Below, piece after piece: positions 6,497 through 23,995 of a stretch of DNA of 24,312 bases (its first letter is position 1; each line of letters opens with the position of its first letter). The notes under the pieces were generated by a model that was given only the letters and a program-made list of their open reading frames with translations, had not been told where the DNA came from and made no database searches. Origin of the DNA: Candidatus Helarchaeota archaeon (GTDB lineage Archaea; Asgardarchaeota; Lokiarchaeia; Helarchaeales; RDOG01); the NCBI GenBank assembly GCA_029838215.1, contig JALGVI010000046.1, positions 1 to 24,312 on the forward strand. The letters run 5' to 3'. The position numbers were made by a program, and so were the translations under genes.

Positions 6497-8017
6497 TTAA
6501 TGCTTGCTTTTATTACGATAGATTCGGAACAGTCCCACGTGTAAAAGTTTAAAAAGCAGATTTCGTAGAAACTTTGCTTCATTAATAAAATTTACTTGGT
6601 TGTAGAACTTATTTTTTCCAAAAATAGTGTGTGAGGACAATCGTTCCAGTACCATTATATCGTGTTTTAAGAGTTCTTCCATCAATGTCCAATGATATCT
6701 GGTCATGTTTTCAAGTATGAATCGTCCTCTCTCTGCAGTCGAATAAATCTGCATTGGAACGTAAATAAAAGGAATAAAAAAGCCCCATTCGTGATCAAGT
6801 CTTTTTAGTAAGGATAATGTGTCTTTAACATCATCATCTTCTTCGCCGGGTAGCCCCATTATGACTGTTGAAACAGGTAGCCATCCGTGTTTTTTCATGA
6901 TTTTAATGGCTCCCAATACTACTTCTTGCCATTCTGAAGGTTTAAAAAGGGGACTACATTTGTGCTTGAAATGTTTCTCCATTAATTTAGTAGAGGCTGT
7001 TTCCAATCCTACTTGTATCACGTTTTCTTTTTTCTTATCTCGGTTAAGCTTGTTTGTTATTTTCTTTACCAAATCAGGATCGTTATAGAATGCCGTGAAA
7101 GTCGTGCTTGTAAAATTTATGTCCCGAATTCCAACATCGTGAAGTCCATCTATTAAGTTTGAGAGTGCTTCCCATTCCGTGAGGAAATTACTTGAACCGT
7201 ATCGAAATGCATCCTCCGATTGAAGGGTTATTGACTTGTATCCTGCATCGACGTGCAAGCGAGCATCGTGGAGAATTTTTTCCATTCGAATAGAGCGCAT
7301 TTTTCCTATTGGACCTTCCGGACAAAACTTGCATCCACGACCGCAACCTCGTGATATCTCAATAACTTTTGTATTTACAGGTCCCAATAATTTTGGTATG
7401 CTTTCAGGATTTGCAGGCTTTCCGAATTTTTCAAATTCCGTAATATCGTTACCATCTTCAATAATCTCTGAGAAAAATGGTGGGACGATATTTTCAGCTT
7501 CACCTCGAAAGACGTAATCAATGCCGCAGTAATTCGCAACAGATTTTGAGCGAAATTGCCAGGCTCCCGGTCCCCCAAATACGACTTTAAATCCAAATTT
7601 ACGTTTCAACCGCTTAATTTTGTTCATGAGTTTTTCAAACATTATGCTATTAATTGCTCTACCACCGAACATGCTTGTAAAAAGTACCGTGGCAGGAGAA
7701 ATACCCAGAGGATCTTCGGCTGAGATTCCCACGATTTTTGTATCTTCATTAATTTGTCGTTTTAAATGAAGAGGAGAAACGATTTTCGTGTCGTATTCTT
7801 GAAGCTCGGAATAATGAATGATGGCTTCAACCGTTCTCAATGCCGTGGTTCCGCGATTGGGAACTCCGTTTTTATCTACTTCCAAAGGCCTGCAAATACG
7901 TTTGAATAAGGGTAACGGAATGATTGAATTTGGTAATGCTATGAAGAACGTTTTAATTGGAGAAGCATCTAATTTGATTAAAAGTGAAGCATCGGATGTC
8001 AATACAATGTTTGCCAT
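6497..8017 (-). CDS. cobalamin-binding-domain radical SAM protein (COG1032-like)
   Basis: SRGCGRGCKFC radical SAM motif; N-terminal domain with GISAEDPLG, GGPGAWQF and RGEAE; GLET and MGLPGEEDDD. Confidence 0.8.
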   Translation of the reverse strand: MANIVLTSDASLLIKLDASPIKTFFIALPNSIIPLPLFKRICRPLEVDKNGVPNRGTTALRTVEAIIHYSELQEYDTKIVSPLHLKRQINEDTKIVGISAEDPLGISPATVLFTSMFGGRAINSIMFEKLMNKIKRLKRKFGFKVVFGGPGAWQFRSKSVANYCGIDYVFRGEAENIVPPFFSEIIEDGNDITEFEKFGKPANPESIPKLLGPVNTKVIEISRGCGRGCKFCPEGPIGKMRSIRMEKILHDARLHVDAGYKSITLQSEDAFRYGSSNFLTEWEALSNLIDGLHDVGIRDINFTSTTFTAFYNDPDLVKKITNKLNRDKKKENVIQVGLETASTKLMEKHFKHKCSPLFKPSEWQEVVLGAIKIMKKHGWLPVSTVIMGLPGEEDDDVKDTLSLLKRLDHEWGFFIPFIYVPMQIYSTAERGRFILENMTRYHWTLMEELLKHDIMVLERLSSHTIFGKNKFYNQVNFINEAKFLRNLLFKLLHVGLFRIYRNKSKH

Positions 8018-8033
8018 TCTTATTTCTTTCTCC

Positions 8034-9137
8034 TTAATACACTCCTGTTGTATACTCTTCTTTTAGTTCTGATATGATATCCACGTTTTGTAAACCGTCC
8101 CATGAAAGAAACTCATCATTACCTTTAACACGAACTGCTTGGTCCCGTTCAATGCACGGAGGGATGAACATTGATTCATCTAAACGCATGAAGCAAACCC
8201 GCCCCATTTCTCCATGCTTGACCTGAGAACCCACGGGATCGTCAAAATCTCCTACCCAACAAATATTTTTTGGTAATTGCGGGAAATATACAATGTCAGT
8301 TTCGGATTTTTGTGGTCTCTGAACTGAGATACCCACTAAAGAGTTTCCATATATACCCAGAAAAGGCTTTTTATAGATTTCTATCAATAGTTCCTGTTGA
8401 TCCGGGCTTATTGAGGTTCCTCCGTGAATGATTCCTTTAAAATCTATATCTTCAATATCAAATTGCTCTACCAGCCTATCCAAGACTACTGATGTCGTTA
8501 TCAGGATGCCGGGATCTTGAGTTTCAAATATTTTTTCATATTGGATTTTTAAAGCTCGTAAATAATCATCCAATACGTCTCTTTTCTCCTTACGAATGAG
8601 GTGCTTGATATAACGCGAGTCCAAATCAATCGTGAAGAAAAATCCTCCACGTAAATATGCCACTTCACGAACTAACGCACCGAATAAATGTGGTCCCGTT
8701 GGTCCGATATACGTGACATTTTCTCCCGTAGGAAATTGATGCTTGTCCATCGACCAACTCAAGAATGATGCCGATTTTTTGAACGAATTCCAATGATTTA
8801 GAATTTTTTTCGGAATGCCTCCACTTCCTCCTGACTCTCCTATCAGGAAATCGCTCTTTTTACAGGAAATATTACCAATTTTCTTTGGCATGAACTGATC
8901 AATTGGGAGTTCACGAAGACAATTTTCATCGAATGGTTCTGAAAATATTGATATTAAATCCTGAATTGAATTTACTTCCTTGATAACATTCACGCCATTA
9001 TTTTCTTGCCATTTTTTCCAGAATGGTGCTCCGAATTCCATGTCAAAATGGATTTTCAAGGTTTTCTCTAAATATACGTCTAGATCAATATTTTCTTCTG
9101 ACCAGGGGAGATGTATGATCTTCTGACTGAAATCCAT
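8034..9137 (-). CDS. EhpF-like truncated ANL-superfamily adenylating enzyme, copy 2
   Basis: HF...GAPFW, ESGGSGGIPK, GPTGPHLFG, FFFTIDLDSRYIK, YGNS, ERDQAVR and terminal GVY match the recalled Pantoea EhpF layout. ATG at 9137 (MDFSQK) is preferred over GTG at 9146 because the paralog starts MDFQRK. Confidence 0.8.
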   Translation of the reverse strand: MDFSQKIIHLPWSEENIDLDVYLEKTLKIHFDMEFGAPFWKKWQENNGVNVIKEVNSIQDLISIFSEPFDENCLRELPIDQFMPKKIGNISCKKSDFLIGESGGSGGIPKKILNHWNSFKKSASFLSWSMDKHQFPTGENVTYIGPTGPHLFGALVREVAYLRGGFFFTIDLDSRYIKHLIRKEKRDVLDDYLRALKIQYEKIFETQDPGILITTSVVLDRLVEQFDIEDIDFKGIIHGGTSISPDQQELLIEIYKKPFLGIYGNSLVGISVQRPQKSETDIVYFPQLPKNICWVGDFDDPVGSQVKHGEMGRVCFMRLDESMFIPPCIERDQAVRVKGNDEFLSWDGLQNVDIISELKEEYTTGVY

Positions 9138-22420: not shown

Positions 22421-22462
22421 GGTCAGCCCACTTTTTTTTGTTATGCTACCAAAACGTAATTT

Positions 22463-23995
22463 CTAATCGTCATTTTCTTTATTTAAATTTTTTTTCTTCA
22501 TTCGTTTCTGACGTATTATGCCATTCACGACTGTATTTGAAACGTTTTTTATGAACATCGGATATTCTAGAACGTGATAGAGAGTATTAATTAAAAATTT
22601 CATTTTTCTACCTAAAGTCTTATTTTCATAATTTATCATCAAGTCCAACTCTCCGAATTTATTGCTCATTTTCTCATATTGGCTATAAAAATCCCTGAAT
22701 GTCTTGTAGAAAAGAGTAATTCCAAATTTTTCAGGAGACTCAAAGATGGGGGACCCAGGACTTGCCGTTATTGGCGTGTTATAAATGCAGACGTAGTTTT
22801 TCGTGAGTAAATTCTCTGCATTTAACTTGAGAACAAATTTTATTCCCTGTAAAATATCATATAATGTTTCATGAGGATTACCTATGTTAACCCATAGTCT
22901 CAATGGAATATTATAATATTTAGCACTATCCATTAATTTTCGTAGCTCTTCTGGATCATTTCTCAACGTTGGATCGAGAACTGACCTGTAACGTTTTAAT
23001 ACATTATCTGAAAAGGCTTGAATGTTGTATTCGAGAAGACTCAAACCCTGGATGAATGTTTTTGCAAATTCTTTCAATAAATTCTTGAACGGTAATCGCC
23101 AAATTTCGAGAGCACCGCCCAATTCTATTTTTTCCTTTCGTAATTGTCGAAATATTTCCAAAAAATAGTCTTCGTTTTTTCTATAATAACCATGACCAAA
23201 GAAAATCGTATTTATTTCTGAAATTCCTTCAAGTGCCTTAATATCAGAAACAACCTTTTCGGGAGATCTTAACAGGATCTTTCTTCGTTTGTTAATGATA
23301 TATTGTCCTCTTCTACCTCCTCCGCAGAACGGACAATTAAAGGGACATCCTCTTGCAATCATTATCGAAAAAGGCATTACTGATTTCTCGCACAATTTGA
23401 AATATTCTCTCCAATGATCCATGAAAGACAAATCAATAAAATTCAAGTGATCAATATCATTTGCAACATAAGAGATCGGTGTTTCACGTATTTTATCCCC
23501 TTTTCGATATGTTAAATTGGGAACATCCGTGAAATCCTTCCCATTTTTCAGGGAAGACACGTACTTGAGAAACGGAACTTCTCCTTCCCCCCTGATAACG
23601 GCGTCAATATCGGGAAAATTTTCCAATATTTCTCGAGCATAATATGTTGCAGTATATCCTCCAATAATGATTTTAGCATCAGGTCGTTGTTTTTTTATTA
23701 ATTCGGCGATCTTAATGGTTCCATATGAATGCAATAACCAATGCAGGTCAATTGCACAAACATCAAAATCTAATGACTTGAGAGAACGCGAAAATGAGAA
23801 TTTCTTATTAAGGTGGAGCTCGAGTGGAACGTTTAGAAGTTTTACATCGAAGCCACCTTCGGTCTGACAGTAATTCACAATTGCCGGTAGCCCCATCGGG
23901 AGAAACGCATTAGAACTTCTTGATGCGTATTTCTTATTATAGTCAATTTGAAATGTCCTCGGGGGATGAATGAAGAGAATGTCATTAGATTTCAT
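22463..23995 (-). CDS. cobalamin-dependent radical SAM enzyme (DLHW-type, Ta0216-like)
   Basis: FIHPP, PMGL, IDLHWLLHSYG, IGGYTAT, IRGEGE, ARGCPFNCPFCGG, LRSPEKVV. Confidence 0.85.
   Translation of the reverse strand: MKSNDILFIHPPRTFQIDYNKKYASRSSNAFLPMGLPAIVNYCQTEGGFDVKLLNVPLELHLNKKFSFSRSLKSLDFDVCAIDLHWLLHSYGTIKIAELIKKQRPDAKIIIGGYTATYYAREILENFPDIDAVIRGEGEVPFLKYVSSLKNGKDFTDVPNLTYRKGDKIRETPISYVANDIDHLNFIDLSFMDHWREYFKLCEKSVMPFSIMIARGCPFNCPFCGGGRRGQYIINKRRKILLRSPEKVVSDIKALEGISEINTIFFGHGYYRKNEDYFLEIFRQLRKEKIELGGALEIWRLPFKNLLKEFAKTFIQGLSLLEYNIQAFSDNVLKRYRSVLDPTLRNDPEELRKLMDSAKYYNIPLRLWVNIGNPHETLYDILQGIKFVLKLNAENLLTKNYVCIYNTPITASPGSPIFESPEKFGITLFYKTFRDFYSQYEKMSNKFGELDLMINYENKTLGRKMKFLINTLYHVLEYPMFIKNVSNTVVNGIIRQKRMKKKNLNKENDD

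Follow-up and report, generated by a model that had tools for sequence, protein, structure and literature searches.

The window analysed here, an entire Helarchaeota contig of 24,312 nt, carries a block of co-oriented genes (g01–g15, 5412–23995) that we read, with moderate confidence in the interpretation as a whole, as one operon-like unit of 15 genes for the O2-independent tailoring of a membrane-associated metabolite derived from an aromatic carboxylic acid. Judged by gene content, a combination of reduction, hydroxylation and radical SAM chemistry, as put forward in the initial annotation, would be the most economical reading. No gene for the substrate or for scaffold synthesis was found within the window, in agreement with that annotation, and the small carboxylic-acid-bearing substrate is probably aromatic in nature.

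Architecture and conservation of the gene block

The ORF list of the window contains exactly 14 minus-strand ORFs between 6497 and 23995, all co-oriented (Table 1) and separated, in order from g01 to g14, by 42, -17, 26, 35, 0, 16, 21, 0, 12, 17, 22, 5 and 16 nt. The number, orientation and spacing of these genes are as first described, except that g02 and g03 overlap by 17 nt where gaps of 0–42 nt had been given; this is the only overlap. The range assigned to the block can be extended by a conserved fifteenth gene, g15, which is co-oriented with the others and separated from g14 by 86 nt. Only three of 5.8 billion proteins belong to its family, one of them labelled Helarchaeales, and a fold search with its predicted model (pLDDT 63) returned no match. 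Upstream of g01 lies a regulator gene truncated at the contig end, found by tblastn with the two tandem HTH proteins (133 and 134 aa) encoded ahead of g01 on L002, a related contig; it is the probable regulator of the cluster.

Table 1. Features of the window and the matches that define them.
Feature	Position	Strand	Description	Evidence
HTH	24116..24310	-	HTH_3-type regulator, C-terminal 65 aa, Cys-rich tail, cut by contig end	tblastn 40-45% identity
g01	22463..23995	-	class-B (B12-binding) radical SAM, first operon gene	PF02310 53 bits, PF04055 43 bits
g02	21755..22420	-	small protein, hydrophobic N-terminus and low-complexity tail	no family match
g03	20224..21771	-	U32 TIM-barrel Fe-S protein, second CX4CX2CX2C cluster, ~80-aa C-terminal DUF2621-like adapter	PF01136 38 bits, DUF2621 26-29 bits
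g04	19085..20197	-	EhpF-type truncated ANL adenylating enzyme	PDB EhpF 3l2k, E 5e-28, residues 22-357
g05	17583..19049	-	class-B (B12-binding) radical SAM	PF02310 63.5 bits, PF04055 43.6 bits
g06	16374..17582	-	220-aa N-terminal domain without assigned family, Cys-rich DUF2284	PF10050 80.8 bits, residues 244-401
g07	15755..16357	-	stand-alone DUF2284 Cys-rich metal-binding protein	PF10050 108 bits
g08	14441..15733	-	DUF362 protein, 14 Cys, ~90-aa insert	PF04015 123.7 bits
g09	12833..14440	-	ALDH-like paralog without canonical catalytic Cys	66% identical to g10
g10	11228..12820	-	ALDH-like reductase, partner of EhpF-type ANLs	PF00171 25.1 bits (cut-off 23)
g11	10194..11210	-	short U32 Fe-S protein, CX6CX35CX3C	PF01136 90.8 bits
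g12	9152..10171	-	second short U32 Fe-S protein, g11 paralog (34%)	PF01136 83.8 bits
g13	8034..9146	-	second EhpF-type ANL adenylating enzyme	PDB EhpF 3hgu, E 2.2e-32, aligned end to end
g14	6497..8017	-	radical SAM with N-terminal Rossmann-like region	PF04055 59.5 bits only
g15	5412..6410	-	all-helical 332-aa protein, no assigned family; conserved last gene	51% identical gene behind g14 in L044
DUF5714	4180..4920	-	DUF5714 Cys-rich protein, neighbour of block	PF18978 167 bits

The full gene order is kept in a related contig (L002/L044) at 60–86% amino acid identity although the flanks are rearranged, and the block is therefore more than a chance assembly. Fragments of it are present in other Helarchaeales contigs, and beyond these it was not found in searches that covered 400 genomes of Asgard archaea, species-representative genomes and metagenome contigs from JGI. 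The expectation that the genes would be co-conserved is thus borne out by the complete set among close relatives but only there, where it could partly reflect short divergence time; elsewhere the modules are separate. An ANL+ALDH pair occurs alone in an Asgard family, the DUF362 gene occurs alone, and g01 with g03 forms a two-gene unit, all of which, together with the restriction of the complete set to near relatives, is what several small unrelated units packed together without a shared pathway might leave. We nevertheless consider such a packing highly improbable, given that no junction between g01 and g14 exceeds 42 nt and two measure 0 nt, that four paralog pairs are interleaved instead of grouped, and that the order has outlasted the rearrangement around it. 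No module maps to a known housekeeping role.

A predicted carboxylate activation and reduction module

The enzyme families had been correctly named from the outset, with three Peptidase_U32 (PF01136), two EhpF-type, two ALDH-like, two DUF2284 and one DUF362 protein, and g02 as the membrane protein; no cluster protein reaches the curated threshold of an NCBIfam model that carries a functional name. The two ANL enzymes, g04 and g13, are 43% identical to one another; both can be aligned over their length with the EhpF structures and retain the P-loop, and their P-loops read SGGATGLAK and SGGSGGIPK, respectively, the latter aligned with SGGTTGAPK. In g10, Cys296 occupies the position of the catalytic Cys in both MMSDH (4e4g) and ALDH (4i3t). 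In g09, which scores only 13.8 bits against Pfam Aldedh, this position is occupied by Gly with a Cys three residues on (GRGGINC, versus GRGCIN in g10), and the L002 ortholog of g09 likewise has Gly there. Instead of two reductase modules, the genes may encode a single heteromeric reductase, because g09 carries Gly at this position.

At three other loci (L003, L045 and L047) g10 homologs lie directly behind EhpF-like ANLs, and at the latter two the pairs adjoin chorismate-binding/GATase enzymes and DAHP synthase (a DUF362 gene is also present in L045). These chorismate-utilising neighbours lend support to the aromatic or quinone-type scaffold that had been listed among several candidates. Homologs are named 'phenazine biosynthesis protein', 'arylcarboxylate reductase' and 'ThnN' in databases and, on the strength of the sequence matches, the ANL/ALDH pairs are true relatives of EhpF-type aryl-carboxylate reductases. 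EhpF and EhpG are proposed to reduce an acyl-adenylate to an aldehyde on phenazine-1,6-dicarboxylate, and to our knowledge the known substrates of EhpF-type enzymes are small aryl acids only. The pathway steps that we propose are all drawn from family chemistry: after the EhpF/EhpG model, g04 and g13 would adenylate one or two carboxyl groups and the ALDH-like pair would convert the acyl-adenylate to the aldehyde, with g10 as the catalytic subunit and g09 possibly as a scaffold subunit.

An ANL enzyme might also activate a substrate for breakdown, and the block could then be an anaerobic catabolic island in which an environmental aromatic or alicyclic acid is activated, hydroxylated and transformed as a carbon source. 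The patchy, lineage-specific distribution and the dedicated regulator upstream would suit such an island, and hydrocarbon use has been proposed for Helarchaeales (bioRxiv 10.1101/527697). The block, however, holds no CoA-ligase C-terminal domain and no beta-oxidation, ring-reduction or transporter genes, and MCR alpha was not found in the genome. B12 radical SAMs and EhpF/EhpG-type pairs are moreover known from biosynthesis, and we regard catabolism as quite unlikely.

U32 proteins and a related Asgard operon

The three U32 proteins all pass Peptidase_U32 and keep their four-Cys motifs (invariant Cys 80, 186, 190, 222, 350, 355, 358 and 361 in g03; Cys 173, 180, 216 and 220 in g11; CX6CX35CX3C at residues 177–224 in g12). 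The predicted model of g03 (pLDDT 82) has the U32 protein Mk0906 (5d88) as its top PDB match. g11, which scores 94.8/440 bits against the UbiU model, belongs to a rare subfamily, with just 11 of 1.84 billion representatives matching at E<=1e-30, and the sole ortholog found for g12 is in L002. Because two canonical U32 genes (264 and 254 bits) are located elsewhere in the genome, the cluster copies are extra. UbiU/UbiV, TrhP and RlhA perform O2-free hydroxylation with prephenate as the oxygen donor; g03, g11 and g12 would similarly insert hydroxyl groups without O2, and a chorismate mutase gene is present in the genome. The small protein g02, whose conservation in L002 is limited to the first ~120 aa (40%), is a probable membrane anchor that would tether the system to the membrane.

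The g03 family was found in 44 of the 400 Asgard genomes, including the source genome (G000). In three of them (G257, G262 and G277) a g01-like B12 radical SAM (38–41% identity) lies directly upstream of the g03-like gene, while in four others (G128, G233, G196 and G160) the pair frames an operon with PTase_Orf2 (215 bits), SCP2, rSAM-SPASM and three U32 proteins. This wider operon, which at least 28 of the Asgard genomes carry, combines an ABBA aromatic prenyltransferase and SCP2 lipid carriers with three U32 proteins and several radical SAMs; 34 of the 39 PTase_Orf2 matches, in 28 genomes, are no more than 5 kb away from a gene of the g03 family. Its rSAM-SPASM enzymes are fused to SCP2, which would indicate lipophilic substrates, or to the ~80-aa adapter of g03, which is common to five enzymes of the operon. 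In G128, G233 and G160 the slot of g02 after the g01-like gene is taken by proteins that likewise combine a hydrophobic N-terminus with a low-complexity tail but have no detectable sequence similarity to g02.

From this arrangement g01, g02 and g03 appear to be a divergent offshoot of the B12-rSAM/membrane protein/U32-adapter core of the wider operon, and the company that the g01/g03 family keeps there with an ABBA prenyltransferase and SCP2 adds to the case for an aromatic or quinone-type scaffold. Any transfer of substrate from one operon to the other is indirect, because g03 forms a long separate branch of 1.22 substitutions per site, outside the clade that is linked to the prenyltransferase and includes the G128 copy, and g01 and g03 share 37–40% identity with their G128 counterparts, compared to 65–72% between G128 and G233. 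G128 belongs to the same family as the source genome. In G000 itself PTase_Orf2 was not found, nor was a clear ortholog of SCP2 or SPASM.

Radical SAM enzymes, cysteine-rich helpers and the nature of the substrate

CxxxCxxC motifs are present in all three radical SAMs (at residues 217–224 in g01 and 225–232 in g14). Of the three cobalamin enzymes initially annotated, g01 and g05 have a detectable B12 domain, and TokK is the closest solved structure to both, but g14 matches Radical_SAM only and has weak PDB matches only. A third cobalamin enzyme is still plausible, since the best NCBIfam match of g14, though below its cut-off, is to the 'B12-binding/rSAM' family TIGR04013 (95.5 bits versus 251). 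All three would methylate or otherwise functionalise unactivated carbons, chemistry which, together with that of the U32 proteins, would be equally compatible with substrates of isoprenoid, peptide or tetrapyrrole type.

The first of these corresponds to isoprenoid or membrane-lipid tailoring, in which archaeol/GDGT-type or other terpenoid chains would be methylated, cyclised or hydroxylated and the ANL/ALDH enzymes would act on a lipid carboxylate in the manner of LuxE/LuxC. The best NCBIfam match of g01 is TIGR04190 (239/500 bits) and both g01 and g05 match HpnR, HpnJ and a 'lipid biosynthesis B12/rSAM' model, but every one of these scores is far under its cut-off. At another locus (L050) a 33% homolog of g05 follows a U32-DUF2621 gene, in the company of genes for a squalene-hopene-cyclase-like protein and a polyprenyl synthase; the SCP2 fusions and the predicted membrane association of g02 point the same way. 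The ANLs, however, are EhpF-type rather than LuxE (PF04443 and PF05893 gave no match), the window has no lipid-core or prenyl gene, and the wider operon encodes an aromatic prenyltransferase of ABBA type, so that we consider lipid tailoring unlikely.

Peptide substrates would imply RiPP or protein modification, in which the B12 radical SAMs would C-methylate, the U32 'peptidases' would hydroxylate or cleave, and a carboxylate at the C-terminus or on a side chain would be reduced. g05 matches the C-methyltransferase models ApyD (97 bits) and rSAM_ocin_1 (96.6 bits), albeit under cut-off, the shared ~80-aa adapter recalls RiPP recognition elements, and several rSAM-SPASM enzymes occur in the wider operon. 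The block nevertheless lacks a conserved small ORF for a precursor, and neither a protease nor an exporter is encoded in it; the only small ORF (5057–5353) has no family match and no called gene at the corresponding position in L044. With SCP2 fusions pointing to lipids and EhpF-type enzymes to small aryl acids, this explanation seems improbable.

A further alternative is the tailoring of a tetrapyrrole or corrinoid (by reduction of side-chain carboxylates, BchE-like ring chemistry and methylation) or of a cobamide lower ligand. For a tetrapyrrole, a BchE-like enzyme and a PCP_red-like domain had been cited, and multiple tetrapyrrole carboxylates could account for two ANLs. Neither clue held up: BchE is the best NCBIfam match of g05 at 209 bits versus a cut-off of 481, its BzaD score (84 bits) is also less than half of the cut-off, and PCP_red has no match at E<=1, with DUF2621 alone detected (in g03). 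The window has no tetrapyrrole or bza gene and elsewhere the g01/g03 and ANL/ALDH families are accompanied by prenyltransferase/SCP2 and by chorismate enzymes rather than by tetrapyrrole genes, making this alternative very unlikely.

For the aromatic tailoring pathway that we favour, the cysteine-rich DUF2284, DUF5714 and DUF362 proteins would supply electrons or service Fe-S/corrinoid cofactors. g06, which has no match in the ESM Atlas, corresponds to the C-terminal half of the NCBIfam model MbdU, and its own C-terminus is 28% identical to g07. The DUF5714 protein, whose 62% ortholog adjoins the cluster in L044 on the opposite strand, matches the N-terminal half of the same model (137 bits), the C-terminal half of which is DUF2284. 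Because both are halves of the MbdU fusion, we read them as cofactor helpers that probably work together. Orthologs of g08 (38–49%) occur in Chloroflexota and an uncultured archaeon without other cluster genes; DUF362 has been placed in a LarA-related clan (PMC11770544).

A lineage-specific mosaic

A literature search found no paper on this operon or on the wider Asgard operon, in line with the earlier statement that no described pathway has this gene set. Compared to the wider operon, the prenyltransferase, SCP2 and SPASM genes are absent here and g04–g15 stand in their place, and to judge from its parts the operon is a lineage-specific mosaic of modules. The wider prenyltransferase-centred operon is itself undescribed and, at the same middling confidence as the rest of our reading, would make a prenylated aromatic lipid.

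A conserved minus-strand gene block

The MAG carrying the window is 3.62 Mb in size and 94% complete, and the window corresponds to one whole contig of it (C117, 24,312 bp). In the databases, the nearest homologues of g15 are labelled 'Candidatus Helarchaeales archaeon' and those of g03 'Promethearchaeota archaeon'. An ORF listing returned exactly 14 open reading frames on the minus strand between positions 6497 and 23995 (g01 to g14), separated in that order by 42, -17, 26, 35, 0, 16, 21, 0, 12, 17, 22, 5 and 16 nt. The GC content of the block (0.32-0.42) is like that of the genome (0.386). 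The initial annotation had described a run of 14 non-overlapping genes including three cobalamin-dependent radical SAM enzymes. The block and its domains were confirmed, but one junction overlaps and cobalamin binding is supported by a domain in only two of the three radical SAM proteins. The same genes are found in the same order, with 60-86% amino acid identity, in the Logan contig SRR31155650_88810 (loci L002 and L044), and it is very improbable that they form no functional unit.

In L002, g01 is preceded by a tandem pair of HTH_3 regulators whose tail is rich in Cys. A regulator of this type, cut by the contig end, also lies upstream of g01 in the window, which makes g01 the first structural gene (coordinates of this and other features are collected in the table below). 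At the other end, g15 follows g14 in the window and in the related contig. Its family has only three members among 5.8 billion proteins, its predicted model has a pLDDT of 63 and a Foldseek search against the PDB gave no match below E 0.39; neither g06 nor g15 had a usable ESM Atlas match.

A DUF5714 gene adjoins the cluster in the window and in the related contig. The NCBIfam selenoprotein fusion model MbdU matches DUF5714 in its N-terminal half and DUF2284 (g06 and g07) in its C-terminal half, which provides a fusion-based link between two domain families that are neighbours in the window; MbdU is not mentioned in the Haft selenoprotein preprint. Two ORFs on opposite strands overlap at 5057-5456. 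The plus-strand ORF is more likely to be the real gene, in which case the operon would end at g15. Beyond the DUF5714 gene, and on the strand opposite to the cluster, is a molybdate/tungstate-type uptake set. An Rfam search of the window gave no match. A scan for sigma-70 promoters (50 sites versus 56.5 expected) and terminators (21 versus 15.3±3.8) is uninformative for an archaeon.

Coordinates of features in the window, its genome and the compared loci
Feature	Coordinates	Strand	Remarks
HTH_3 regulator, C-terminal 65 residues	24116-24310	-	Cys-rich tail; upstream of g01, cut by contig end
Two tandem HTH_3 regulators	L002:857-1733		Precede g01
Adapter (~80-aa helical DUF2621-like domain)	20224-20500		g03 residues ~426-507
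Adapter, related operon	L110 proteins at 4840, 6268, 8117, 9365		
DUF2284 genes (g06, g07)	15755-17582	-	
g09 (ALDH-like)	12833-14440	-	
g15	5412-6410	-	Helical, 331/332 aa in the window and the related contig; behind g14 in both, 51% identity
Two overlapping ORFs	5057-5456	-/+	98 aa (-), without family; 130 aa (+), just above the Pfam DUF5678 cut-off
DUF5714 gene	4180-4920	-	62% ortholog in L044, on the opposite strand
MoaA-like radical SAM, then periplasmic-binding protein, permease, ABC ATPase with TOBE	241-4183	+	Called MoaA-like ORF apparently lacks its N-terminus
B12-binding/radical SAM paralog, same genome	C147:44856-46031		
UbiA-family prenyltransferase, same genome	C147:46467-47150		
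Related operon	L110:2499-12176		G128:C3
Related operon	L154:929-13536		G233:C27
Related operon	L155:1288-17932		G196:C2
Related operon	L156:39-16993		G160:C15
LuxE-family acyl-protein synthetase	L154:14920-16236	-	G233; convergent to the operon
Cluster with two U32-DUF2621 proteins	L050:3403-18247		Logan SRR29054610

A candidate carboxylate reductase module

EhpF and EhpG belong to the D-alanylgriseoluteic acid (phenazine) cluster of Pantoea agglomerans and have relatives, ThnN and ThnO, in thienamycin biosynthesis; the tetralin/naphthalene thn genes are unrelated to these. Although without a Pfam match, g04 (370 aa) and g13 (370 aa) align over their full length to the EhpF structure (residues 22-357, E 5e-28, and residues 10-356, E 2.2e-32, respectively). 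At ~370 aa and without the ANL C-terminal subdomain, both have the EhpF-type truncated ANL build. The P-loop (consensus (S/T)GG(S/T)xGxPK) reads SGGSGGIPK in g13, aligned to SGGTTGAPK in EhpF, and SGGATGLAK in g04, where the proline is replaced by alanine and the lysine is kept.

As in the EhpF/EhpG system, the cluster also encodes an ALDH-superfamily partner with a catalytic cysteine: Cys296 of g10 aligns with the catalytic Cys of the ALDH structures 4e4g and 4i3t, and the G-x-x-C-x-x-x motif is present in g10 only. Its paralog g09, with which it shares 66% identity, has glycine at this site and a cysteine three residues downstream, as does the L002 ortholog, so g09 may be a non-catalytic subunit. 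The Pfam PF00171 scores (cut-off 23) are 25.1 bits for g10 and 13.8 bits for g09. With the catalytic Cys retained in only one of them, g09 and g10 may be subunits of a single heteromeric reductase instead of two separate enzymes.

Besides this loss of the canonical Cys in g09, the cluster differs from the EhpF/EhpG system in having two ANLs and two ALDHs, with the ANLs not adjacent to the ALDHs, in the ~70 aa of additional length of its ALDHs, which have a basic tail and, close to the N-terminus, a CxxC, and in its host, an archaeal anaerobe without phz genes. Identity to the homologues found by sequence search is 27-34%, a figure that does not refer to EhpF itself. The database names of homologues include 'phenazine biosynthesis protein', 'arylcarboxylate reductase' and 'ThnN'. 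Related bacterial ANL+ALDH pairs (L045 and L047) adjoin chorismate-utilising or chorismate-binding enzymes, glutamine amidotransferase and DAHP synthase, and one of the two clusters also has a DUF362 gene. By analogy with the neighbours of these homologous pairs, the EhpF-type ANLs are candidates for activating an aryl carboxylate for the ALDH-like partner. A role for the window cluster in catabolism appears improbable.

Three U32 proteins distinct from UbiU and UbiV

TrhP and RlhA are RNA hydroxylases related to UbiU-UbiV, and SCP2 is the fold of UbiT. All three U32 proteins of the cluster exceed the PF01136 cut-off of 22.4 bits (g03, 38.1; g11, 90.8; g12, 83.8), and the predicted model of g03 (pLDDT 82) has the U32 protein 5d88 as its top PDB match, indicating a U32 barrel. 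Four invariant cysteines are arranged as CX6CX35CX3C in g11 and g12, while g03 combines CX3C...CX3C with an extra CX4CX2CX2C cluster and carries a DUF2621-like domain of ~80 aa at its C-terminus. The four cysteines expected of a 4Fe-4S protein are found in each, but their spacing differs from the published U32 hydroxylase motif, CX6CX15CX3C (PMC11574389). UbiU and UbiV hydroxylate without O2, using prephenate as oxygen donor (PMC10990095, PMC11574389).

The window proteins resemble the UbiU-UbiV-UbiT system as TIM-barrel proteins with four conserved Cys, of which g11 and g12, paralogs encoded side by side, recall the UbiU and UbiV pair; SCP2, the UbiT fold, is carried by the related Asgard operon described below. 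Besides the Cys spacing of CX6CX35CX3C, they differ in scoring far below the NCBIfam equivalog cut-offs, which none of them reaches (UbiU 94.8/440, TrhP 81.8/534 and UbiV 17.8/275 bits). Unlike the ubiquinone pathway, the cluster contains no SCP2, UbiA, UbiD/X, UbiE or UbiG. Elsewhere, the genome encodes two canonical U32 proteins, a chorismate mutase, making prephenate supply possible, one chorismate-binding enzyme and three UbiA-family proteins; no MqnA/MqnD-type futalosine-pathway gene (PF02621) was found in it. At E<=1e-30, 1.84 billion proteins contained 11 representatives of the g11 subfamily, and the five closest genomes have none. The neighbourhoods of the nearest g11-like U32 proteins (L052-L054) hold unrelated genes, a glycosyltransferase and APH.

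Radical SAM enzymes

Like the class-B radical SAM methylases (TokK/ThnK, CysS and OxsB) and BchE, both g01 and g05 combine an N-terminal B12-binding domain with a radical SAM core and the CxxxCxxC motif. They differ in this from g14, where core and motif are present but PF02310 gives no match. TokK is the nearest solved structure for g01 and g05, the PDB matches being weak (E 1e-12 to 2e-10), and neither protein reaches an NCBIfam equivalog cut-off. At least 16 B12-binding/radical SAM paralogs are encoded in the genome, compared with 8-11 per genome in the five nearest relatives, and g05 has only paralogs of 28-34% identity in the five closest genomes.

The initial annotation had named a modified tetrapyrrole as one of three candidates, citing a BchE-like enzyme and a PCP_red-like domain. 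Neither pointer survived: g05 scores 209 bits against TIGR02026 (cut-off 481) and g01 82 bits, so that g05 was rejected as a BchE ortholog, and there was no PCP_red match. Tetrapyrrole or corrinoid tailoring appears, if anything, slightly more improbable than catabolism. The genome contains no MCR alpha, which leaves a link to an alkyl-CoM reductase cofactor unsupported. Tailoring of an isoprenoid lipid is also unlikely, if less so than the tetrapyrrole or catabolic readings. A tie to the GDGT ring synthases through TIGR04190 is unsupported, since no control genome scores above the cut-off; one B12/radical SAM paralog elsewhere in the genome adjoins a UbiA-family prenyltransferase.

A related Asgard operon containing a prenyltransferase

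The g03 family occurs in 44 of the 400 Asgard genomes, including that of the window, and all belong to the same class. In three of them (G257, G262 and G277), a g01-like B12 radical SAM gene (38-41% identity) lies directly upstream of the g03-like gene on the same strand. In G128, from the same family as the window's genome, the pair frames an operon that encodes a B12 radical SAM enzyme, a 191-aa membrane protein, two radical SAM-SPASM enzymes, SCP2, the ABBA-type aromatic prenyltransferase PTase_Orf2 (215 bits), the U32 protein and PIG-L. The Loki-class genomes G233, G196 and G160 have the same operon with a second B12 radical SAM, two further U32 proteins and radical SAM-SPASM enzymes fused to SCP2, to which G196 adds FAD_binding_4 and CCG/Fer4 proteins. 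The operon holds two to four radical SAM-SPASM enzymes, some of them SCP2-fused, and three U32 proteins. Of the 39 PTase_Orf2 matches, 34, in 28 genomes, have a g03-family gene no more than 5 kb away; since these genomes are related, the figure describes a consistent pattern and has no statistical weight. Judged from its gene content, the operon looks like a candidate O2-independent route to a prenylated aromatic lipid. A LuxE-family acyl-protein synthetase convergent to the operon in G233 belongs to a different truncated ANL type from the EhpF-like g04 and g13.

An HMM of the g03 tail detected the DUF2621-like domain on U32a, U32b, both SPASM enzymes and the prenyltransferase of the related operon; in the window's genome it is found on g03 only. 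It is N-terminal on the two radical SAM-SPASM enzymes and C-terminal on the prenyltransferase and the two U32 proteins, and looks like a common docking or adapter domain. The slot after the g01-like gene is always occupied by a small protein whose N-terminus is hydrophobic and whose tail is of low complexity. In the window this slot holds g02, which has a hydrophobic N-terminus and belongs to no family. The slot proteins do not match g02 at E 1e-3, the correspondence being positional and compositional only, but the presence of similarly built proteins in the same slot suggests that g02 is a real gene.

The two operons share the opening pair of a B12 radical SAM and a small hydrophobic protein, the family of adapter-bearing U32 proteins, a complement of three U32 proteins and several B12 radical SAM enzymes. 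However, the window's genome lacks the prenyltransferase, SCP2 and SPASM genes and has the ANL/ALDH, DUF2284 and DUF362 genes, a different U32 pair, g14 and g15 in their place. PF11468 (PTase_Orf2) has no match in this 94% complete genome, and tblastn queries with the G128 prenyltransferase, SCP2 and SPASM proteins found no clear ortholog there. The identity of g01 and g03 to the G128 proteins is 37-40%, whereas G128 and G233 share 65-72%. In a quick maximum-likelihood tree of the g03 family, from which sequences shorter than 440 aa were left out, g03 and its L002 ortholog share a long branch (1.22) that falls outside the clade linked to the prenyltransferase, to which the G128 copy belongs. 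The missing prenyltransferase, the low identity and the position of this branch together argue that g01-g03 is a divergent offshoot, a paralog or transferred copy, whose substrate need not be the same. Modification of a peptide by the window cluster is about as improbable as catabolism.

Other g03-family members have comparable neighbours. One (L049) lies with HemN-like radical SAM enzymes and a UbiE-like methyltransferase. L050 is another anaerobic terpenoid-type cluster, with two U32-DUF2621 proteins, a g05-like B12 radical SAM, two radical SAM-SPASM enzymes, a squalene-hopene-cyclase-like gene and a polyprenyl synthase; its IF-2B and PNP_UDP_1 genes are of the MTA/5'-deoxyadenosine salvage type.

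The full gene set is rare

Among the 400 Asgard genomes, ALDH homologues were confined to 22 of the 31 genomes of one distant family, at ~35% identity, and to G087 and G397, two single genomes of other families; the family, order and class of the window's genome had none. The one locus of the distant family that we examined (L003) has only an ANL+ALDH pair, and nothing in the cluster corresponds to the 161-aa gene located before the Heimdall-type ANL. Metagenome contig scans with the ALDH and g05 alignments returned no further copy. A scan of genome contigs with DUF362 yielded four orthologs (Chloroflexota and an uncultured archaeon), none of which was accompanied by other cluster genes. The full gene set is rare.

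A proposed pathway and its significance

None of the cluster proteins reaches the curated threshold of any NCBIfam model that is named for a function. By sequence, the parts fall into known superfamilies (EhpF-type ANL, ALDH, U32 Fe-S and class-B radical SAM) and none is an ortholog of a characterised enzyme; we class the whole as an anaerobic tailoring cluster whose enzymes come from known families. We infer all of its pathway steps as follows. The EhpF-type ANLs g04 and g13 would adenylate carboxylates and g10/g09 would reduce the adenylates; g03, g11 and g12 would hydroxylate without O2, after the UbiU/UbiV precedent, and g01, g05 and g14 would catalyse radical methylation or similar reactions. 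Proteins of the DUF2284, DUF5714 and DUF362 (g08) families may serve as redox or cofactor helpers, and g02 as a membrane anchor. As substrate, a membrane-associated metabolite derived from an aromatic carboxylic acid is the most likely class, and we give it an even chance.

A wider proposal, tentative and unlikely, is that Asgards of the Lokiarchaeia/Helarchaeales make their own O2-independent, prenylated, poly-hydroxylated aromatic redox lipid (a 'quinone') via the PTase_Orf2/SCP2/three-U32/B12 radical SAM operon. The window cluster would then be a sister pathway that reuses the B12 radical SAM/membrane protein/U32 core, with EhpF/EhpG-type carboxylate reduction replacing prenylation, and would yield another electron carrier or a signalling molecule that differs chemically from the first product.

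A literature search found no paper on this gene set or on the Asgard prenyltransferase/U32 operon, and to our knowledge the latter is undescribed; it is probably the more important lead of the two. The window operon brings together hydroxylation by U32 proteins, the radical SAM chemistry of cobalamin enzymes and the adenylate-dependent reduction of carboxylates, a combination that we found in no paper. Through the adapter on five enzymes and the DUF5714-DUF2284 fusion link, three domains of unknown function gain a first functional context. No known organisms are more closely related to the eukaryotic host lineage than the Asgard archaea, and as far as we know almost nothing has been established about their membrane bioenergetics and small-molecule repertoire. 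If the product of either operon is a redox carrier, it would extend the U32 hydroxylases beyond ubiquinone and RNA and offer a concrete, testable handle on Asgard electron transport.
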